DNA of 64,000 bases from a virus (IMGVR_UViG_3300019378_000951:32001-96000); one strand, 5' to 3'; shown: positions 8,624 to 62,910, counted from the stretch's first letter. Numbers and translations: made by a program. Notes: generated by a model from the letters alone, not told the origin.

Positions 8624-9262
8624 TTAATTAGGTACTATTAAATTTTTGTTACTATCTTCTAAAAAATTGTAAAAATTTTTTACTTCATTCATGAATGTTT
8701 TAGTAAATTTTGCGGCTACATGCCTAATATCTTCAACTCTATACCACTCATTACTTCTTTCTATGTTTGTTATAGTTTTAATATCAAATTTATAACCAAC
8801 TGGTAGAATTATAGAAAAGTCTCCAACTTCTGTTATATGTTTATTAACTCCAGCTCCGGGTTTTACTCCGCCAGTTCTAAATTTAAGTTTAAGCATTTCA
8901 ATATTATTATCAAATGCCAATGCCGCATCAAATGCAATTATTAAATCATGGTTGTTTCTTTTTATCTCGTTTATAACATCTTCAGCATTTATGCCATTGA
9001 ACCAGTATAAATGTTTTTCAGTTATACCTTCTTTTAAAAATTCATCATATATTATTGGACCAAATATGTCAAAATTAACTTTTCTGCTTCCAACACAAAC
9101 CAATGCCGGATTTTTAGTATACTTGAATTTTACGGCAATTGTTTTAGCTAGATTAGTTAAATGATCGTCACAATTACTAGTAAACATTATATCTTTTAAA
9201 TAATCAGCTAGTTCATTTCCATTTCTAAAAATTTCACCATTAAATTTAATTCTTTTTTCCAT
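8624..9262 (-). CDS. yyaC: Spore protease YyaC / DUF1256 (GPR-like) family protein
   Basis: LVCVGS...D-FGP, IIAFDAAL and GVKPGAGVNK...VGDFSI match YyaC signatures. Confidence 0.8.
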   Translation of the reverse strand: MEKRIKFNGEIFRNGNELADYLKDIMFTSNCDDHLTNLAKTIAVKFKYTKNPALVCVGSRKVNFDIFGPIIYDEFLKEGITEKHLYWFNGINAEDVINEIKRNNHDLIIAFDAALAFDNNIEMLKLKFRTGGVKPGAGVNKHITEVGDFSIILPVGYKFDIKTITNIERSNEWYRVEDIRHVAAKFTKTFMNEVKNFYNFLEDSNKNLIVPN

Positions 9263-37218: not shown

Positions 37219-38820
37219 TTGTATATGAAAAAATTATTAATGTATAATATGGATAGAATAACTAGCAATTCTTTATGGTCTAATGGAGAATGTACAGTGA
37301 ATTTCTTTTCAAGTTTAACTAGAAAAGCATATACACCTAATAGAAAAACTATTGAAGATTATCTAGCTACAATACCTTATCATAGAACAACTAATAATTC
37401 ATGGTGTTCTGAAAGAGGTGTAAAAGATATAAGAGTATCAGTAGCTAGTATGCAACTTGTTGAAGAAACTACAAGTTGGTACCCATATAAGTACAAAAAA
37501 ATTCTAGTTAAAGATTATGCAGATGAAGTCAGTATCGAGCTATTTGATACTGATGGCTATTTTAATTATTTCAATGAACATAAAGAAATTGATTATTTAG
37601 TAATTCAAGATATGTATACATTTGTACAATTAATAAACAAAACTGATGAAGAATTAGGAAGAATTACAATAGACAATACAATAATTGCATGTTATGATGC
37701 TTTTGAAGTAACTTATAATGGTGACATCAAATTTATAGATAAAGATCTTTGTGATTATAATTATGAAACTAGACCTATTAATATATATTACGAAATTATT
37801 AGAGACCTTGATAAAGAGTACGGAATTAAATTAGTAAACACTACTAATAGAATATTCAAAGCGTTAGCCTACGGTTATAATAAAGCTTTAAAGAAAAATG
37901 TATCTCAACTTAATACATTTTCATTAGTATTATTACCTCTTTTAGATGATAAAGATTATATATTGAAAACTATAGAAAATTATTATAAAACTCTTACAAA
38001 AACGAAAGTTGACTCTTCAACATATAATTTATTATTAGATCTTATTAATAATAAAAAACTAGATATTGAAGATTTTGCTAAAATTATATTTAAGTCAAAA
38101 TCTAAAAAGAATTATGAAGTATTAGCTGAATTATTCGATTTACATTCTCATACTTCAAAATCTTTATTTAGTATTACTAATGCAGAAGATTTAAAAACAT
38201 TAGTAACTCAATATAAAGATTATATAATGTCAGGTAATTATATGATAGGTATTGAAACTGTAATTGATTATTTAACAAAAGAAGATCTTAAAAAGATTAA
38301 TAAATCTGAAGTGGCACTTATGGCTAAAACATCAGTTTTTAAGTATTCGCATAAAAAAGAATTTAAAAAGTTACTAGATCTTTTAAGTGATACAACAGAA
38401 TTAGATACTCCTGGTATCAGAAGATTTAAACAAATGAAAACTAATTTATACCCACAAATGTCAATGCTAAGTATAGCAATAGACGCTATGACAATGGAAG
38501 AAGTTGAAAACGTAAAAACTGAAGTGGCTTCTATGATCCTGTCTCAAGTATTCACACAAAATGATAGTTTTAGTTATCAAAGAATAATAATGACTAATGT
38601 TAAAAATTTTGAGATAATAGCGACTGAATTATTTGATCAACTTGCTACAGATACCAACAAAAGACATATTGAAAAGTATTTAAACAATGTAGTTCATCAA
38701 TATAAAGAACTAAAACCAGGCAGTATTATTACTGTTGCACATTCACCTTTAGCCGATATGACTTTTTGTAACGCAAATCATAAAGTAATTCAAAAACTTT
38801 ATGTTAATAAAACTTTATAG
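37219..38820 (+). CDS. Hypothetical early protein (paralog of 35643-37181)
   Basis: Same shared motifs; identical upstream AAAATTAAATTAAATTTTAGGGAGGTAATT leader. Confidence 0.65.
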   Translation: MYMKKLLMYNMDRITSNSLWSNGECTVNFFSSLTRKAYTPNRKTIEDYLATIPYHRTTNNSWCSERGVKDIRVSVASMQLVEETTSWYPYKYKKILVKDYADEVSIELFDTDGYFNYFNEHKEIDYLVIQDMYTFVQLINKTDEELGRITIDNTIIACYDAFEVTYNGDIKFIDKDLCDYNYETRPINIYYEIIRDLDKEYGIKLVNTTNRIFKALAYGYNKALKKNVSQLNTFSLVLLPLLDDKDYILKTIENYYKTLTKTKVDSSTYNLLLDLINNKKLDIEDFAKIIFKSKSKKNYEVLAELFDLHSHTSKSLFSITNAEDLKTLVTQYKDYIMSGNYMIGIETVIDYLTKEDLKKINKSEVALMAKTSVFKYSHKKEFKKLLDLLSDTTELDTPGIRRFKQMKTNLYPQMSMLSIAIDAMTMEEVENVKTEVASMILSQVFTQNDSFSYQRIIMTNVKNFEIIATELFDQLATDTNKRHIEKYLNNVVHQYKELKPGSIITVAHSPLADMTFCNANHKVIQKLYVNKTL

Positions 38821-39075: not shown

Positions 39076-41454
39076 ATGGCAAATTTCAAAGATGTTAAGG
39101 ATGTAGTAGTTTTAACTATATTAGCAGGTAGAGTTCCAGTTATAAAAGGTGCTCACGGGCTTGGTAAGTCTCAAATGATGGAAACTATAGTACGAGATTT
39201 AGGAATGAAACTAATAACTATAGAGGGAGGTCTTCTAAAAGAAGGAGAAATCGGGGGTCAAATGTAGGCTCGTTCACAAAGTGATTTGTGTTCCAATCTC
39301 TCTAATTGCTGGGACGTCCTTAGAGCCTATTCAACTACAACGTGATCCGCAAGGATGAGCGTGAATGTTTAAAAATGGATAGGATTGGATAATCAGCAGC
39401 GAAGCATATATACCATTATAAACCAATTAATTGCAATGGAGGTTATAATATGGCAAAGAATAAAAATGCTATTAATTGGGACGTTGATTTTATTAAAGAA
39501 AATTATAATACAATGAAGTTAGTTGAGATGGCTGAAATTCTAAGCAAAAAAGATAGTCGAATAAATGCTAAAAATCTTTCAAGACAATGTAAGAAAATGA
39601 ATCTTAGTAAACTTACAATGATTAATGATATAAAATTGAAAGATGATGAAGAATTTAAGCCAATACCAGGATTTAAAAATTATGAAGTTTCACAATATGG
39701 AAATGTTCATTGTTTAATAACAGGTTCAATTGTAGCCGATATTATTGATGGAAAAGGATATCATATAAGAAAAATTACAGATAGCAGTAATATTAAACGT
39801 GATATGCCTTTACATCGACTAATTGCACTTGCATGGATTTATAATGATGATCCTGTTAATAAAACACAAGTTGATCATATAGATGGTAATAAAGATAATA
39901 ACTCATTAAAAAATCTTGAATGGGTAACGCCTCAAGAGAATATTAATCGAGCTAGACAGAATAAATTGAATAACTCCAAACCATCAGATCATACTAGAAT
40001 GGACAAAGACACTGTTAAAAAATTGTATCTATATTGTAAAAACAATCCTGGATATACAACTAAAGACGTAAGTAAAATGTTTAAATGTAGTCAAGCAACT
40101 GTTCGCAATATAATGTCTGGTAAAAGACATGCGGACGTTACAAGAGGTTTATAATGGTATATATGAACGTTCAACGACTAGCCCGAGGGTGGTGAGACTC
40201 CACAATAGGCGTAGGGCCCAAGCTAATGGGGTGGGTGAAAATCCCTTAAATCGAAATGGGAGACTCTCATTTATATGAGATGAAGATATAGTCTACTCTA
40301 TACAGAAATGTATAGCACTTTTTAAAGTGGAATGAGTGTTGCGAACTCATTTTAATATATGGCTACCAATAGTTAAAGAAAGAAAATTCAAAAACAACAC
40401 AGGAAAAGAAGATACAACATATGTAACAGAATATGCAATACACAATAAGATGAGATTAATGAATCAGTATCTTGATGACGGAGAAGCTGTACTACTATTC
40501 ATAGACGAACTTAACAGAACTGATAATGCAGTTATGCAAGAGCTAATGAATATCATACTAAACAGAGAGATAAATGGTATAGTATTACCAGAAGGAGTAT
40601 ATGTATGTGGCGCTATGAACCCATCAGCTAATGACGGAGTTAATAACTATAGTACAAATGAACTTGACCCAGCTCAATTAGACCGTCTAACTATAATAGA
40701 AATGGATCCAGACACAACTAGTTGGTTAGATTGGGCTTTAGCAAAACCAGGCAGCTCAAGATCAGAAGACGAAATCCCTCAATATAAACGTCTTAATAAA
40801 TCTCTATATAAAACTAATATAGACGATTCAATAATAGAATTCTTATCAATGAACTCTGACTTCTTAGTAAAACAATCAGTATCATCATTAATAGGAGTAT
40901 CACCACGTTCTTGGGAAATGGCATCTGATTTAATAAGAACTTATAAGTTAAATCAAAATGCATTTAGACCTAATATACTTCAACATGCACTAGTAGGTAC
41001 TATATCACCAGAGGTTTATCAAAAGTATATCCACTTCACAGAAAGTAATAAATCTAAGTTAGTAACAGGAGACGAATTCTTATTTAGTGACAAAGTTAAG
41101 AAAGATGCAACAACTAAGAAGTATAGAAATGACCCAGAATTAGTTAAGAGATTCTTAGATGAACCAGCTAACAGACAATCTATAATGGTTAAATCAACAC
41201 TTAACATGTTAGTTGAGATAATGAACGGAAATGTAAGAGATAAAAAAGATTCATCTAAAACACTTAAATTCAATGCTAAGTTTAAAGAACTATACATTGA
41301 ATTAATGGAATATCTTCCAGCAGATAGAGTAGTTGAAGTAATGAGATATTGTAAACAAGAACATAATAAGATGCATCAAAAACTAATGGATGATGAAGCA
41401 TACTACAAAAAATTCGTAACAGAAACTCAAAGAATTAAAAAGTCAGCTAGATAA
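39076..41454 (+). CDS. MoxR/dynein-related AAA+ ATPase, spliced: exon 1 39076-39258, exon 2 40363-41454 (424 aa)
   Basis: Walker A GAHGLGKS, junction EIGG|LP, Walker B LLFIDELNR, GAMNP, LDPAQLDR, SPRSWE. Confidence 0.88.
39259..40362 (+). mobile_element. Group I intron in the AAA+ ATPase gene
   Basis: P1 GGGU/GCUC; P10 GUAG/CUAC; core AAUUGCUGGGA, AAUCAGCAGCG, UUCAACGACUA, AAGAUAUAGUCU; terminal G; splicing restores the frame. Confidence 0.92.
39450..40154 (+). CDS. Intron-encoded NUMOD4-HNH homing endonuclease
   Basis: FKPIPGF..YEVSQYG (NUMOD4); HRLIA...VDHIDGNKDNN..NLEW (HNH); C-terminal HTH. Confidence 0.9.
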   Translation: MAKNKNAINWDVDFIKENYNTMKLVEMAEILSKKDSRINAKNLSRQCKKMNLSKLTMINDIKLKDDEEFKPIPGFKNYEVSQYGNVHCLITGSIVADIIDGKGYHIRKITDSSNIKRDMPLHRLIALAWIYNDDPVNKTQVDHIDGNKDNNSLKNLEWVTPQENINRARQNKLNNSKPSDHTRMDKDTVKKLYLYCKNNPGYTTKDVSKMFKCSQATVRNIMSGKRHADVTRGL

Positions 41455-55317: not shown

Positions 55318-58300
55318 ATGTTTTATTTGGATAAATTAAAAGAGAATAAGCTTTATAATAAATTTCCAATTTCGGGAATAAATGCTTCAGCTCAAGATAA
55401 GCGTAATGGAACATGTTTAATGGTTTTAGGTAAAAATCAAAATGAAACAGTTGAAGTCCTTAATGCCGGACTAGTAAGTCCTATGAATTTTAGATCTTTT
55501 TATATACCACGTAAAATAAAAACAGTTCACGCAAATAAAGTAACATTAGTTAAGCAAAAAGATTATTATGATGTTATAAAATCCAAAGCTGCAAATATAA
55601 GTTTTACATTGACAACTATAGAAGCTTATAAAGGTAAAAACTTAATATATGATATGTCTCAAGAAATTGAATTTACAAATTCTATAATAAAAGTTTCAGG
55701 AAAACGTAAATACGAGATAATGTCAAAAATGATAATGACTCGTTTATATGAACTTAAAGCTCATTATCAAAATGTAATAATATTATGTCCGATGAGTATA
55801 AACGAAGAATCATATACTAATATAAATGCTGCAAATTCAATGAGTCAATATATTTATCACATGTTACAATCTGGAATTCTTGAGGATGAAATGGTTATAA
55901 TGTTTGCACCAGCTTCAAGAATATACACATTATTTAAAGGTAATGAAAATACAGCTAATGAATCAATGAAAATAATAAGACGTTTACAAAACCGTATTAA
56001 TGGTGTTGACGAAGATTCTGAAGAAAATGCTGAAATTAAAACTGTTAATGATGATGAAGTAGTTCAAGATGTATCAGAAACTGTAGTTAATAAAGAACTT
56101 AAGCCTATATTAAATAAAATAGGCATGAAAGTTGATAAGGTTCCATCAGATTTACACCCAATGGTATCTGCTTTACAAGATATGGTACAAGAAGTAATTA
56201 AAACTAAATCAGAAGAAGAAATGGTGGAAGAGGTTCTTAATAAATCACCTGAATTCTTAGAAATGTTTAGTGAATTAGTTGAAATTAAAAAGGTTGGTAT
56301 GAACAATGCCGAAGCTATTAAGAAAACAGAACGTATACAAAAACTTAAAGAAAAACAAGGGCTGGTTCAAGTTACAGATAATTTAACAATAGCAGATATA
56401 CTAGCGGATTTTGAAGAAATTAAATTAGAACCAATAATACTTCCTGCTAGAACTATTAACAAAGAAATACAGCAATCATCAGTTAAAAACTTTGATAGTT
56501 CTTATCAAAAGAAAGTGTTAGAAAAAGATATAGCAAGTATATTTACAGCATTTAACAATGATACAGATATTAAAATATTTACAACAAGAGTTCAAAAAAC
56601 TGATAGTTCTGATGATTTATCTAATAAAGAAACATACAGTCTTACAATGGAAGACGACAGAGGTAATAAACATAATGTAACATTTGATTTGCCTAAAGTT
56701 AAAGAAGGTAAATTTATGTACTTAAACTCAGGTAAAAAACTTATACAAAAACAAATAATGCTTTTACCTATAATAAAAACGCATCCAGATAAAGTACAAG
56801 TTACATCAAATGCTAATAAATTCTTCGTTGAACGTTTTGGACAAAAAATGTCATCAAGATTAGATGCATTAAAGAGATTATGCATATCTGATGCTTTAAG
56901 AGGTTCTAATATAGAAGTTAAAAAAGGTAATGCTAAAGGAGTTAACTCTAAACTTCAAACAAACCTTGAATATTTAGACTTCTCTGATAGTGTTTCTGAA
57001 ATAAACTTTGGAGACCTTAAATTACAATTTAACTATAATTTAATAATGAATATGCTTAATCCTAATAAACCAGATTTCAATGAAAAAGTATATAATGAAT
57101 TCGGAGATAAAGATAAAGATTTTATGTTATTTGGATATTCGCGTAAAGAACTTATAATGTTCGATAGAATATCTGGAGAAGTATATAGCCAAATAAATGG
57201 TAAAAATGATAAAGTTGCAGATTCTTTATTTGATTATGTATTAGGCTTAATAAATAAATCTAACGTAGATAAAAAAGTTGTAGCTTCTATACTTAATAAA
57301 AAACCTGGTAAATCATACGCGTACAGTAGAATAGCTATAAATAGTAAACGCATGCCATTAATATGTATACTTGGTTATGAACTAGGATTATCAAAAGTTC
57401 TTGAAAGATATGAAATAAAATATAAGTTCTCTCAAGAAGTACCTAAGTATGCAGCAACTAACAAACAAGAAATAATTAGATTCTTAGATGGATATTTAAC
57501 ATATGATTCTAGCCTATTACGTAATTCATTATTATTAAATGGACTTTCTGCAGTAGGTTGTGAAGAATATAGTTTTGAAGATATGGATACTATAGAACCA
57601 TATTTAGACATGTTCTATCAATTAACTGGTTCTAGAAATGCTGGTAAAGGTATACATAATAACCTTAGTTTAATGATAGACCCGTTAACACTAGATGTAT
57701 TAAGAAAACTACATTTACCAGAAAATATATATGATATATTACTTTATTCTAATACATTACTTGAAGATGTTACATTTAAGAAAATGAATGATATGAGTAC
57801 TTATCGTATAAGGGGAGCAGAACAAATACCAGCATTAGCTTATAACTGTTTAGCTAACTATGTAAGAGAATATAAAGACAAAATACGTGCAGGAAATAAT
57901 AATGCTAGAATAAGTATGCCTAGAGATATAGTAATTAAAAAGATACTTGAGCTAGCAACAGTAGATGAATATTCTACACTTAATCCATCACTTGAAATAG
58001 AACGTAGTTCAGGTGCAACATATAAAGGTTTAAGTGGTAAAATAATGCCACCTCGCATATGTGAGTAAAACTTCTTTAATTGCTGGAAACTCCTATATGG
58101 ACAATCAGCAACCAAGCTCGAAAGAGAAGGTTCAACGACTATCGAAACCGTTAATAAGGGAGTAGAGTACCGAAAGGGAAATGGGAAGCATCAGAGATGA
58201 TGAAGATATAGTCTGAACTATATAGAAATATATAGGTAACATAATGATTAACCTTGATAGTGCATATACACCTGCTATACGTAGTTATGATAAATCAATG

Positions 58301-61300
58301 AATGGATTATTTAGTTATAGTACTCCTAAAATGGGAATTTTATTATAAACACTATTGGGAGTGTAAAACTTCTTTAATTGCTGGGAACTCCTATATGGAC
58401 AATCAGCAGCCAAGCATCTATAAGATGAAGGTTCAACGACTATCGAAACCGTTAATAAGGGAGTAGAGTACACTCAGAATGAGTGGAAATGGGAAGCACT
58501 AGAGATAGTGAAGATATAGTCTGAACTATGCAGAAATGTATAGTTAACATAAATGGATAGTGACAAAGTTGGGGTTAGAAAGACAATCTAATGGCTCCAA
58601 CTATAAAAAAGCTCTTTAATTGCTGGGACATCCCATGAGGACAATCAGCAGCTTAATTAATCTTACTTTTATTTTATAACAAATATGTATAAATAAAAGT
58701 AGGAGTGGTGAATATAAATGAATCTTAAATTAGAATTAAATGGCAGTACATATAATATAAATACTGAAAGTTATCCAGAAGGATATGGATTAAAACTATA
58801 TGAACAAGCACAGAAATTCGGATATATGTGTTATAATTATTATGAATGCATAGATGACAATACTTCATATTTGCTTATGTTTTCAAAAGCATATGGCATA
58901 ATAAAAGCTAAAGTAGATAATGAAGATATTCCTAAACTATCTAAATGTACATGGAGACCTAATTATTCTAAACGATCTCAAAAATATTACGTAGAGAATA
59001 CAGATAAAGGTAAAATGCATAGATATATAATGGGGTTTAACAAAAAAGAAGATGTAGATATAAAAATTGATCATATAGATAGAGATCCTTTAAATAATTG
59101 CAAAACTAATTTACGTAAAGTAACTCAAGCTGAAAATTGTAAAAATTCTTCATTGAGAAGTGACAATACATCTGGTATAAAAGGTATACGATATGAAAAA
59201 AGTAGAAACAGATGGTCAGCTGAAATACATGTAGATGGTAAAAAATATACTAAATGTTTTGCAGTTAGTAAGTATGGATATCAGGAGGCATTAAATTTAG
59301 CTATTGAATTTAGAAGAAAGATTGCTGAAGAAAATGGATTCATAAACCCATTTAATTAAGTTCAACGACTATCGAAACCGTTAATAAGGGAGTAGAGTAC
59401 ACGAAAGCACGTGGAAACAAGAGCCACTAGAAATAGTGAAGATATAGTCTGATCTGTATAGCAATATACAGTTAACATAAATGCGTTAGACAATTAACTT
59501 ATAACCCTAATATACTTAATACAAGAGGATTCGTAGACACAGATAGATCAGAAAATCCGGCTATAGATTATTTCGGTCCAGCTGAGCTACTTAACCCATT
59601 CACTAAATTAATTGGTGAATTAAAACTTCTTTAATTGCTGGAACCTCCTATATGGACAATCAGCAGCCAAGATAAAATAATCATCTAACAATATAAAAAT
59701 CATTTTAACAAATCTCTATTAAAAATTATTGAGAGGAGTTAACAAATGCCTAAAAAATTAACAGAACAAGAAGTTCGAGATAATATTAGTAAGATAGATA
59801 ATGGAGAATATGAATTAATAGGACATTATATAAATAGTAAAACTCCAATTAAAATAAAACATAAATGTGGACGAATAATGGAAATTCAATATGGAAAATT
59901 TACTGGAAAAAGAGCTCAAAGATGCAGATGTTTATTTGAACATCATAATAAAATGAGTCTGGATGAATTTAAAAAACGTTTATTTGAAAAACATGGGAAC
60001 AATTATGAAATTGTAAACGAAAATGAGTATGTTGATTATAATACTCCTATATATTTTATACATAAACCGTGTGGTAATAAATATAAAAGAAAACCAGATA
60101 ATGTTATTAGATGTAATACATGTGTAGAATGTAGTTATACGCAAAAATTAAGAGCTTCTAATAACACTACAAAAACATTGTCTCAAATAAAGAATGAGAT
60201 TGATAAAATAACTGAGGGATCATGCAAATTAGCATACGATATAAACTATATAAATAATAAACAAGAATTGCCAATACTTCATAAGGAATGTGGTAAAATT
60301 AGCATGATTAGTTTTAATGATATTTCAGTTAAAAATACTAGATGTAGATATTGTAGTGGAAGTAAAGGAGAACTTATAATACAAGATTATCTTGATACTA
60401 ATAATATCAAATATGAACGAGAAAAAATTTTTGATAATTTAATTGATGAAAAACATCTTAGGTTTGATTTTTATATAGAAAATTACAATCACAATCTTTT
60501 AATAGAATTTGATGGAATTCAACATTTTGAACCAACATTTGGAAAAGATGATGTTGAAAAACAAAATAGATTTGAACTAACTCAAAAGCATGATAATATG
60601 AAAAATGAATATAGCAGAATACATGATATTAATCTTTTGAGAATTCGATATGATGAAATTGACAAAATAAATAAAATATTAGATGACTATTTTTATAAGG
60701 TTCAACGACTATCGAAACCGTTAATAAGGGAGTAGAGTACACTTAACTGTGGAAATGGGAAGCACTAGAGATAGTGAAGATATAGTCTGAGCTATGCAGA
60801 AATGTATAGATTAACATAACTGAATCAACACGCAGACCCACCGAGAATTAATAACCTGGTTCTCGTTAAACTTCTTTAATTGCTGGAACACCCTACAAGG
60901 ACAATCAGCAGCCAATCCTGAAAAGGAAGGTTCAACGACTATCGAAACCATTAATAAGGGAGTAGAGTACACCAACAATGGTGGAAATGGGAAGCACTAG
61001 AAATAGTGAAGATATAGTCTGATCTGTATAGTAATATACAGCTTAACATAATGCGGAATGCAGACAACTTAATTGTTGGGTTGTCTATAAAACCCTTTTA
61101 ATTGCTGGAACACCCTATATGGACAATCAGCAGCCAATCCTGAAAAGGAAGGTTCAACGACTATCGAAACCATTAATAAGGGAGTAGAGTACCGAAAGGG
61201 AAATGGAGGGCACTAGAGATAGTGAAGATATAGTCTGAACTATGCAGAAATGTATAGATTAACATATGCAACAAAAACATATAATCCCTATAAAGAAAGC

Positions 61301-62910
61301 ATCTCGTCCATTATTTGGATCAGGGGCTGAAAAAACTTTACCGTACCTACTATCAGATGACTTCGTAGATAAAGCAGAAAAAGCAGGAGTTGTAGAAAGA
61401 ATAGATAAGAAAATTAACTTAGCTGTTCTTAAATATGATGATGGTACTAGAGGAGTAATAGATCTAGCACCAGTAATGTCTAAAAACTCAAACGGTGGGT
61501 TAAAGAAATAGCTCACATTAAACGCTTTTAATTGCTGGGATATCCTATATGGACAATCAGCAGCCAAGCTCGAAAGAGAAGGTTCAACGACTATCGAAAC
61601 CGTTAATAAGGAAGTAGAGTAAATTTCACTTTGTTATGATATTTTTGAAAAGGAGCGCATCAGAGATGATGAAGATATAGTCTGATCTATACAGCAATGT
61701 ATAGTTAACACAAATGTTTTCTTAAAAAATGAAAAGAGATTTATGCTTAATGAAGGAGATAAATTTAAGCAAGGACAAATTATAGCTAAGAATGATCAAT
61801 ATTTCTTAGGAGATAATGCTGATAATGTAACTTATTCTACAGGGCGTATGACTAAAGTTGCCGTTACAAGTGCAGATTATACCTTAATATAGGGCTTTAT
61901 ATTAGAAATAATATATCGAAATACTTTTAATTGCTGGGAAATCCTACATGGACAATCAGCAGCGAAGATATAATATCTTTAACATGTATAATTTAATAAA
62001 CAAAAAGAAAATGATATTATATAACGTTCAACGACTATCCCGATAGGGAGTAGAACCAAGCGGTTCGAAATGGAGTACATCATATATGATGTTGATATAG
62101 TCTGGTCTATATAGAAATATATAGAAGGTATGATGTAGCGAATCATATCGCAACATAAACGATGAAGATAGTTCTATGGTTACTGATGCATTAGCTGAAG
62201 ACCTTACTTCTAAAATAACTATGAAGAAAACTATCAATCTAGGAGTAAATGCAAATATAGAACAGATGGTTAAAGTTGGAGATAAGATTAAAACAGGACA
62301 ATCTTTAATGATATTCGAAGAATCATTTGAAGATGAAAGTATAAATGCATTACTTGCTACTTTAGGTGATGAGTTTAATGAGCATGTAAGAGAAAACTCT
62401 AAAAATAAACTTAAATCTAAGTATACAGGAGAAATAGTTGATATAGTTATTTATTATAATAGAGATATAAGCGAATATCAACCTTCAGTACAAAAAATAT
62501 TAAAAGATTATATTAAAGCTGAAAAACTTAAAAAGCAATTTGTTAAAACTGCAACTGGGTCTAACGATGTTAGTTCTATACGTATGAAACCAATTAACAA
62601 ACAAAAACCTGGTAAAATAAAAGGTGAAGACGTTGATGGTTTATTAATAGAAATCTATATAGAATATATGGATAAAGCTGGTGTCGGAGACAAAATTACT
62701 TTCTACACAGCATTAAAGACTATCATATCAGATGTTATACCTAAAGGACAAGAACCATATAGTGAGTATAGACCTAATGAAGACATAGATGCAGTATTTT
62801 CTCCACTATCTATAAACTCGCGTATGACTACAGATGTTTTCAATGCGATGTTTTTAGGTAAGGCACTTATAGAATTAAAAAGACAAATAAAAGATATATA
62901 TGAAAAATAA
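55318..62910 (+). CDS. RNA polymerase beta N-terminal subunit (virion-RNAP/phiKZ gp178-like), 9 exons: 55318-58038, 58247-58327, 58556-58575, 59484-59604, 60823-60848, 61054-61069, 61269-61500, 61717-61884, 62162-62910; 1377 aa
   Basis: Spliced frame is open (4134 nt). It restores the beta motifs KGLSG|IN, IRSYD..STP|DSDKVG, NPFT|NQHADPPRIGMQTT|QQKH, DYTYEDSS, GDK...K, SPLSINSRM. Confidence 0.92.
58039..58246 (+). mobile_element. Group I intron 1 (208 nt, ORF-less)
   Basis: P1 GUGGU/GCCAC; full P/Q/R/S core; terminal G. Confidence 0.93.
58328..58555 (+). mobile_element. Group I intron 2 (228 nt, ORF-less)
   Basis: P1 ACUCCU/GGGAGU; P10 CACUAUU/GAUAGUG. Confidence 0.93.
58576..59483 (+). mobile_element. 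Group I intron 3 (908 nt) with HNH-AP2 ORF
   Basis: P1 GUUGGGGU/GCUCCAAC; P10 UCUAAUG/CGUUAGA. Confidence 0.93.
58718..59359 (+). CDS. Intron-encoded HNH-AP2 homing endonuclease
   Basis: MHRYIM...IDHIDRDPLNN..NLR (HNH); NTSGIKGI...WSAEI (AP2). Confidence 0.9.
   Translation: MNLKLELNGSTYNINTESYPEGYGLKLYEQAQKFGYMCYNYYECIDDNTSYLLMFSKAYGIIKAKVDNEDIPKLSKCTWRPNYSKRSQKYYVENTDKGKMHRYIMGFNKKEDVDIKIDHIDRDPLNNCKTNLRKVTQAENCKNSSLRSDNTSGIKGIRYEKSRNRWSAEIHVDGKKYTKCFAVSKYGYQEALNLAIEFRRKIAEENGFINPFN
59605..60822 (+). mobile_element. Group I intron 4 (1218 nt) with Zn-finger/Vsr-like ORF
   Basis: P1 AUUCACU/GGUGAAU; conserved core; terminal G. Confidence 0.92.
59746..60735 (+). CDS. Intron-encoded homing endonuclease (Zn fingers plus Vsr/EDxHD-like), paralog of 114-1139
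   Basis: HKC/HKPC/HKEC...CxxC repeats; SKGE, LRFDF, IEFDGIQHF, HD motifs. Confidence 0.86.
   Translation: MPKKLTEQEVRDNISKIDNGEYELIGHYINSKTPIKIKHKCGRIMEIQYGKFTGKRAQRCRCLFEHHNKMSLDEFKKRLFEKHGNNYEIVNENEYVDYNTPIYFIHKPCGNKYKRKPDNVIRCNTCVECSYTQKLRASNNTTKTLSQIKNEIDKITEGSCKLAYDINYINNKQELPILHKECGKISMISFNDISVKNTRCRYCSGSKGELIIQDYLDTNNIKYEREKIFDNLIDEKHLRFDFYIENYNHNLLIEFDGIQHFEPTFGKDDVEKQNRFELTQKHDNMKNEYSRIHDINLLRIRYDEIDKINKILDDYFYKVQRLSKPLIRE
60849..61053 (+). mobile_element. Group I intron 5 (205 nt, ORF-less)
   Basis: P1 CGAGAAU/GUUCUCG; conserved core. Confidence 0.9.
61070..61268 (+). mobile_element. Group I intron 6 (199 nt, ORF-less)
   Basis: P1 AGACAACU/GGUUGUCU; P10 UUGUUG/CAACAA. Confidence 0.93.
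61501..61716 (+). mobile_element. Group I intron 7 (216 nt, ORF-less)
   Basis: P1 GUGGGU/GCUCAC; conserved core. Confidence 0.92.
61885..62161 (+). mobile_element. Group I intron 8 (277 nt, ORF-less, AT-rich P6 remnant)
   Basis: Short P1 CCU/GGG; conserved core; splicing gives T|YEDSS. Confidence 0.85.

Follow-up and report, generated by a model that had tools for sequence, protein, structure and literature searches.

Eight group I introns in the most conserved stretch of a predicted virion RNA polymerase beta-subunit gene from an uncultured AR9-type jumbo phage

Introduction

How can the gene for an RNA polymerase subunit be expressed if the part that encodes its most conserved motifs is cut by eight introns, leaving exons as short as 16 nucleotides (nt), and is such crowding a device of the phage or a burden that it carries? 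This question is raised by positions 55318-62910, on the plus strand, of a window of 64,000 nt, the whole stretch of DNA analysed here, which corresponds to bases 32001-96000 of a 216-kb viral contig of the IMG/VR database (IMGVR_UViG_3300019378_000951; completeness estimate, 84%). A preliminary description of the window, made from the DNA alone, had proposed that this region is an RNA polymerase gene split by eight group I introns, with three micro-exons of 16, 20 and 26 nt, and that the arrangement implies ordered splicing. The explanation that we favour, to which we would give a probability of about 0.88, is that a single-copy gene for a virion beta subunit has been colonised by eight group I introns, apparently of the IA type, all within a stretch of 230 codons that contains its most conserved motifs, and that these introns are accumulated selfish elements.

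Results and Discussion

A virion-type beta-subunit gene in nine exons

By its homologies, the gene at 55318-62910 is assigned to the virion-type RNA polymerase beta subunits of jumbo phages of the AR9/PBS1 type, as the orthologue of g189 of Bacillus phage AR9, which the AR9 record annotates as the virion RNA polymerase beta subunit. Exon 1 (55318-58038, 2721 nt) matched phrog_38251, 'RNA polymerase beta subunit', with an E-value of 2e-199, and is 38% identical to AR9 g189 and PBS1 gp80 across all of its 907 amino acids (aa); the closest cultured relatives were the Bacillus phages Internexus, Goe21, PBS1 and AR9, with around 38% identity over this exon. The ATG start agrees with the N-terminus of a homologue (P0004). 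At the other end of the gene, exon 9 (62162-62910, 749 nt including the stop codon) contains a match to Pfam RNA_pol_Rpb2_6 (4e-8), and its identity reached 52% with P0004 and 61% with AR9. In the search against PHROGs, exons 1 and 9 matched opposite ends of both phrog_14872 and phrog_3148, exon 9 covering profile positions 1152-1392 of the 1393 in phrog_14872. Pfam gave no match for exon 1, for P0004 or for the 329-aa open reading frame (ORF) found in intron 4, and exon 1 and this ORF were resolved by PHROGs. The profile built from the homologues matched structures of bacterial beta and of the AR9 polymerase.

From the orthology to AR9 g189, the protein would be expected to be present in virions and to have a role in early transcription, and the gene is presumably essential. 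No second copy of the beta gene was found in the 216-kb contig, so that a functional beta subunit should need the removal of all eight introns.

The outer exons are separated by seven internal ones, which add up to 664 nt, as the value of around 660 nt given before had indicated. Exon 2 (58247-58327, 81 nt) encodes INLDSAYTPAIRSYDKSMNGLFSYSTP and aligns with all homologues. It is followed by micro-exon 3 (58556-58575, 20 nt), which encodes DSDKVG plus 2 nt, and by exon 4 (59484-59604, 121 nt), which starts with VRQLTYNPNIL and aligns with the homologues. Micro-exon 5 (60823-60848, 26 nt) encodes NQHADPPR plus 2 nt, within a DDANR-like motif, and micro-exon 6 (61054-61069, 16 nt) completes the codons for IGMQTT. 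Exon 7 (61269-61500, 232 nt) starts with QQKHIIPIKK, its identity to homologues that lack introns being 45-49%, while exon 8 (61717-61884, 168 nt) aligns with homologues through ...KVAVTSADYT. Joined together, the nine exons give 4134 nt in one frame of 1377 codons, the sole stop codon being the terminal one. The coordinates, exon lengths and frame length in the preliminary description proved to be exact; its statement that the ORF track misses five of the exons was roughly right, the number depending on the length cut-off (six are missed at 60 aa). Since gene callers fragment the gene and miss its micro-exons, RNA polymerase subunits of uncultured jumbo phages would be systematically mis-annotated.

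After in silico removal of the introns, the product was colinear with intron-less beta homologues. When the spliced protein was aligned with six homologues whose genes are uninterrupted (1362-1546 aa; identity, 26-40%), none of the eight junctions coincided with a gap, and the residues conserved in all homologues were restored across the junctions. Alignments with these homologues and with bacterial beta recovered the conserved motifs across the junctions, which bears out the restoration of beta-subunit motifs that had been claimed. In the profile alignment to bacterial beta, intron 1 falls in the GPGG fork-loop region, introns 2 and 3 interrupt an ETPEGPNIG-like motif, introns 4-6 are inside a DDANRALMGANMQRQ-like motif and intron 8 adjoins a YEDS motif; the motif names are those of E. 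coli beta.

Alleles without introns exist for many of the sites. Metagenomic contig L004, an 85%-identical relative whose DNA identity in exon 1 is 83%, naturally lacks introns 1, 2 and 4, and is contiguous at the nucleotide level over junctions 1, 2 and 4 with synonymous differences only. AR9 genomic DNA is contiguous over junctions 1, 2, 4, 5, 6 and 8, and the gene is an unbroken ORF of 4.3 kb in Listeria phage LPJP1 and in Staphylococcus phage SA1. All eight junctions are confirmed by comparison at the sequence level, and splicing of all eight introns would be expected from them.

The same comparisons bear on the trustworthiness of the assembly. Seven repeats of around 200 nt, 74-91% identical to each other, are found within 4 kb of a metagenome contig, and short-read assembly might have stitched near-identical repeats from different places or strains into an array that does not exist. 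We find this scarcely credible, given that the guide of each copy is matched to the exon directly upstream, that the exons are in the correct order and phase and colinear with the homologues, and that three independent assemblies (L004, L003 and L002), together with the cultured phage AR9, show this kind of architecture too, at sites that are identical or adjacent.

Ribozyme cores and splice signals

A search with the Rfam model RF00028 (gathering score, 50 bits) located eight cores on the plus strand in the interval 58039-62161 for which eight had been claimed, six of them above the gathering score. These six were full-length matches, at 58028-58235, 58315-58543, 60839-61041, 61060-61257, 61480-61704 and 61875-62124, scoring 73-83 bits, with E-values between 1e-17 and 1e-21. 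They correspond to the introns without ORF: intron 1 (58039-58246, 208 nt, 83.4 bits), intron 2 (58328-58555, 228 nt, 83.3 bits), intron 5 (60849-61053, 205 nt, 79.8 bits), intron 6 (61070-61268, 199 nt, 82.4 bits), intron 7 (61501-61716, 216 nt, 79.8 bits) and the divergent intron 8 (61885-62161, 277 nt, 73.4 bits). For intron 3 (58576-59483, 908 nt) and intron 4 (59605-60822, 1218 nt), a sensitive search with RF00028 returned 3' halves, at 59344-59471 (38 bits) and 60676-60809 (30 bits), respectively. Their low scores are due to the presence of homing-endonuclease genes in the P6 loops; the ORFs lie between the two strands of P6, and a model built from the intron family itself (R1) recovered both halves of each intron.

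On the basis of these matches, the eight insertions are identified as group I introns. Across the six ORF-less copies, covariation by double changes was counted at ten of the 41 consensus pairs; these lie in P3, P6, P8 and the P9 hairpin. The introns are probably of the IA type, that of phage T4 td and Twort: in the general RF00028 alignment all eight have a conserved insertion of 38-55 nt between P7 and P3', where IA introns have the additional helices P7.1 and P7.2, and a stretch of 35 nt in the core is identical to introns of Twort/K-like phages.

The 3' ends of the Rfam matches were discarded as splice sites, since their use results in 17 stop codons, and the G that ends a conserved AACAYA-type tail was chosen instead. 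In introns 1-7 the predicted 3' ends are 9-13 nt past the Rfam ends, through this tail (mostly AACATAA(A)TG) and then the G; in intron 8 the 3' end is 37 nt past the Rfam end, through an extra hairpin, and the intron terminates in AACATAAACG. The AACA of the intron tails was also considered as part of a late promoter of the AR9 type, which we take to be AACA-N6-TW, and this was rejected as a general reading: the spacing suits intron 1 and not intron 2.

The splice signals announced in the preliminary description, a P1 helix ending in U.G and a terminal G in each intron, were found, with the reservation that P1 of intron 8 is weak. A U precedes the 5' splice site and a G closes the intron in all eight cases. 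P1 includes 5-9 exon base pairs (bp) and is closed by U.G in introns 1-7, as in GUGGU/GCCAC (intron 1), the 8-bp GUACUCCU/GGGAGUGU (intron 2), CGAGAAU/GUUCUCG (intron 5), the 8-bp AGACAACU/GGUUGUCU (intron 6) and GUGGGU/GCUCAC (intron 7). On each of the three micro-exons, P1 is the minimum-free-energy hairpin, with z-scores from -2.6 to -3.6 (-3.6 for P1 of intron 3, on exon 3, and -2.65 for P1 of intron 6, on exon 6). Each guide pairs best with its own exon, with 5-9 bp versus at most 5 bp off-target, the exception being intron 8. A scan of the exons for cryptic P1 partners gave so many A/U-rich and G.U matches that it was set aside.

Intron 8 is only 53-61% identical to introns 1-7. Two further observations concern its extra 3' hairpin (62125-62161), whose GTAGCGAA loop resembles the tails of AR9 introns, unlike introns 1-7, and whose 5' arm has, as judged by eye, 9 nt of complementarity with the end of exon 8, either by chance or as an alternative pairing.

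A divergent intron with a weak P1 is also what one would see if the gene were decaying, with at least one intron unable to splice, the locus then being a pseudogene and the phage genome either defective or badly assembled. The state of the rest of the gene makes this very unlikely: the nine exons are in frame, with no premature stop or frameshift over 4134 nt, the residues invariant among homologues are kept, the core helices are kept through compensatory changes, and the contig has no other gene for this subunit, which in AR9 is annotated as belonging to the virion RNA polymerase.

For a gene that is functional and colonised by selfish introns, as we propose, expression would proceed as follows. 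Each intron would fold on the pre-mRNA, its internal guide forming the U.G-closed P1 with the 3-9 nt at the end of the preceding exon; an external guanosine would cut at this point, and the terminal G of the intron would then be used for the joining of the exons. Eight independent splicing events of this kind would produce a 4134-nt message and a protein of 1377 aa. Several points weigh against this proposal. P1 of intron 8 is marginal, since 3 of its bp involve the exon and 2 lie in the intron, and its fold z-score is only -0.5; this intron may need a cofactor. It is also possible that the missing 16% of the genome contains a second copy of the gene, and that ORF-less introns reached new sites by any of three routes, namely reverse splicing, co-conversion or loss of an endonuclease.

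Occupancy of the hot spot in related phages

To place the number eight in context, a census was made of 44 homologous IMG/VR loci and seven cultured phages, in which cores were detected with the family model and insertions by tblastn chaining. The IMG/VR loci were gathered using an alignment as query, a query with the single exon-1 protein having returned none. The core model is specific to this intron family, and the counts for other loci may therefore be low. No insertion was present in 28 of the 44 loci, and most of the others had one or two; around four were counted in L046, and around five in L051 and AR9. In the cultured phages the number went from none in LPJP1 and SA1 and one in MarsHill to at least four in BpSp and at least five in Internexus. 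These last two phages, together with the five introns of AR9 g189, indicate that the previous statement that such genes usually have only one or a few introns falls short of the actual situation. With eight, the gene studied here is the census maximum and its most intron-dense phage gene, the next highest number being five.

The positions of the insertions recur in distant phages, at residues ~893, 904-911, 933-942, 979-982, 995-999, 1068-1073 and 1304-1309, and from these alignments the region is a hot spot with variable occupancy. The site at residue ~1309 (around window position 62700, near the GVGDKIT motif, in the last exon) has insertions of 340-1670 nt in many distant relatives (L034-L038, L040, L046, L049, L051 and L053), and is vacant in the window.

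Micro-exons and the order of splicing

The presence of exons of 16-26 nt between ribozymes has led to a different view of the array, in which crowding is functional: the micro-exons would force splicing to take place in a fixed order or cooperatively, and the array would act as a timer or checkpoint on the virion polymerase. The geometry lends itself to such a view. In all three micro-exons, the P1 that belongs to the following intron is formed within 8-19 nt of the 3' splice site of the preceding one, and two folded cores of around 200 nt so close to each other could clash. The choice of 3' splice site is not sequence-specific, because the 3' tails of introns 1-7 are near-identical, and exon skipping has been reported for three similar introns of Twort (Landthaler and Shub, 1999, as cited in PMC3073962).

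The base pairing, however, does not support an obligatory order. The preliminary description held that P10 and P1 of neighbouring introns must form on the same micro-exon, and that ordered or coupled splicing is implied. Yet P1 takes the last 7-9 nt of each micro-exon (9 in exon 3, 7 in exon 5 and 8 in exon 6), and the candidate P10 is confined to 2-5 nt close to the 5' end; since the two never overlap, base pairing does not force an order of splicing, and the claimed implication does not follow. Candidate P10 helices, of 1-5 bp at the allowed offsets, are in any case at chance level. Comparison with relatives points in the same direction: the array is dispensable, because some relatives lack part of the introns, as is the case of L004 with introns 1, 2 and 4, and most homologues have none. 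An exon of 11 nt is tolerated in AR9, and transcription from 5' to 3' would supply a default order without any special mechanism. A timer or checkpoint role thus seems improbable to us, steric coupling or exon skipping at the micro-exons being possible. Joint skipping of exons 5 and 6 (42 nt, in frame) was considered as a source of a functional isoform and rejected, since the core of the DDANR-like motif would be lost. The pile-up is best taken for a hot spot at which selfish elements have built up, rather than for a regulatory device.

Intron family, endonucleases and spread

Introns 1-7 form a single family, the 74-91% identity among them being interrupted mostly in P1 and the guide, in P2 and in the loops. 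The cores of introns 2 and 4 are 91% identical and only intron 4 has an endonuclease gene, so that the gain or loss of this gene must be recent.

Two endonuclease genes are found in the array. The ORF of intron 3 (58718-59359, 213 aa) is predicted to encode an HNH-AP2 homing endonuclease of the AR9 g190 type: it matched Pfam AP2 (1.9e-13), HNH_3 (1e-4, just under the cut-off) and phrog_99, 'HNH endonuclease' (1e-29), and is 51% identical to AR9 g190, which occupies the AR9 intron at the same site. The ORF of intron 4 (59746-60735, 329 aa) matched phrog_559 (1.5e-62) and phrog_9084, 'homing endonuclease' (2.8e-24), and has repeated modules in common with AR9 g188. The final ~12 codons of this ORF (60694-60735) lie in the conserved ribozyme core (GGTTCAACGACTATCGAAACC...), for which reason its translation and the folding of the ribozyme should compete.

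The array also bears traces of movement. Between the window (58556-59606) and L004 (4123-5173), intron 3 is 98.9% identical whereas the flanking exons are 85-92% identical, which indicates recent horizontal movement of this intron. The block of high identity extends little beyond the intron, as might be expected after recent homing in which only a short tract was co-converted. Occupancy of the remaining sites differs among relatives: intron 1 is not present in L004, L003 or L002, intron 2 is not present in L004 or L002, and intron 4 is not present in L004 or AR9. In L003 (94% identical), from 3575 onward, there is no intron 1 and a different, ORF-bearing insertion is found 12 nt downstream, after ...TTGGAT; this is the site of AR9 intron A (position 8797 in the AR9 sequence, L001). 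L002 has another insertion, after residue 892. Neighbouring insertion sites seem to be used alternatively. An Rfam search of L002-L004 with E-values up to 0.01 gave no intron, while blastn and tblastn revealed intron 3 and the other insertions; the Rfam result is explained by these contigs ending inside introns or carrying the ORF-split form.

Outside the gene, around a dozen more copies of the family of introns 1-7 were noticed in the genome, at about 16.7k, 103.0k, 103.4k, 132.9k, 135.6-136.8k, 137.8k, 150.6k, 191.1k and 206.8-208.0k. With these additional copies, the 216-kb genome would contain around 20 group I introns, an unusually high number. Near the beginning of the window, on the minus strand, 61-255 and 1114-1283 are the two halves of an intron of the same family, separated by some 860 nt that presumably correspond to an endonuclease gene. 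A further group I intron on the plus strand, at 39259-40327, had an RF00028 score of 46 bits, just below the gathering score, and both halves were found with R1; it carries an ORF of 234 aa (39450-40154) and appears to split a gene represented by the ORFs at 37219-38820, 39076-39267 and 40336-41454.

Spread of the introns between co-infecting phages would most likely be driven by the two endonucleases, of the HNH-AP2 and phrog_559 types, together with co-conversion of neighbouring DNA. A more tentative proposal, which we consider possible and rather doubtful, is that a family of ORF-less IA introns of around 200 nt has expanded in a burst to some 20 copies, seven of them in this gene, by retargeting of the guide through transposition of the reverse-splicing type, with the endonucleases invading secondarily. 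If this were true, the genome would be a natural record of the endonuclease-independent spread of group I introns in a virus, in which one could also examine how as many as eight near-identical ribozymes fold and find their correct splice sites on a single transcript.

Under the reading that we favour, a single-copy gene colonised by selfish introns, the locus is already of interest as a compact natural construct of 4.9 kb for the study of how near-identical ribozymes fold co-transcriptionally without mispairing. It bears as well on the order of intron removal and exon skipping when exons are of 16-26 nt, and on the acquisition of new sites by introns without ORF. Among the protein-coding genes of phages and bacteria, a set of eight group I introns may be a record.

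Comparison with known systems

Crowding of introns in this gene is already known from its relative AR9, and in this respect the novelty attributed to the locus in the preliminary description is overstated. In the AR9 record (KU878088; Lavysh et al., 2016), g189 is given as six joined pieces, and Rfam finds five introns in it; when spliced in silico, exons of 2796, 78, 11, 178, 220 and 911 nt give one frame of 1397 codons. Both genes have several group I introns, probably of the IA type, in the same 230-codon hot spot, upstream synteny is kept, and at the aa level the two are 38% identical in exon 1 and ~61-64% identical in the 3' exons. AR9 intron C is at the site of intron 3, with the HNH-AP2 endonuclease that is 51% identical, and AR9 intron E is at the site of intron 7, with an identical P1; the 11-nt micro-exon of AR9 corresponds to the 20-nt exon 3 in the window. 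There are also clear differences. AR9 has five introns and one micro-exon, versus eight introns and three micro-exons here; three of its introns are displaced by 9-12 nt from introns 1, 2 and 6, introns 4, 5 and 8 have no AR9 counterpart, and introns 1-7 of the window are only 58-72% identical to those of AR9. The beta gene is likewise split by introns in PBS1, Internexus and BpSp.

Other phages offer more distant parallels. Twort also has several closely related IA-type introns in one gene, but these are three, in another host gene, and their splicing and exon skipping were demonstrated by experiment (Landthaler and Shub, 1999, as cited in PMC3073962), whereas splicing of the eight described here is predicted. 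In Bastille-type phages there are at most three introns per gene (PMC11878797). The gp210 protein of PhiPA3 is the HNH endonuclease of a group I intron in a jumbo-phage RNA polymerase gene, and interference with intron-less competitors is the rationale tested for the targeting of such genes (PMC11620839); PhiPA3 is a nucleus-forming Pseudomonas phage with a single intron, in contrast to eight in the window gene.

The density of introns had been called extreme and eukaryote-like. The first part holds, in that eight is the highest number in the census; for the second, a more apt comparison is that with a fungal organelle gene. The mitochondrial cox1 of Agaricus bisporus has 19 introns, 18 of them group I, of more than 1 kb each and mostly with ORFs, and exons down to 3 nt (PMC2987802). 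As in the phage gene, group I introns crowd the conserved motifs of a gene that is essential, or presumably so in the phage, and the exons left between them are very short; cox1 is the denser of the two. The introns of the window differ from those of this organelle gene in being minimal, of around 200 nt, mostly ORF-less and, as they have been described, all from one family, unlike those of cox1.

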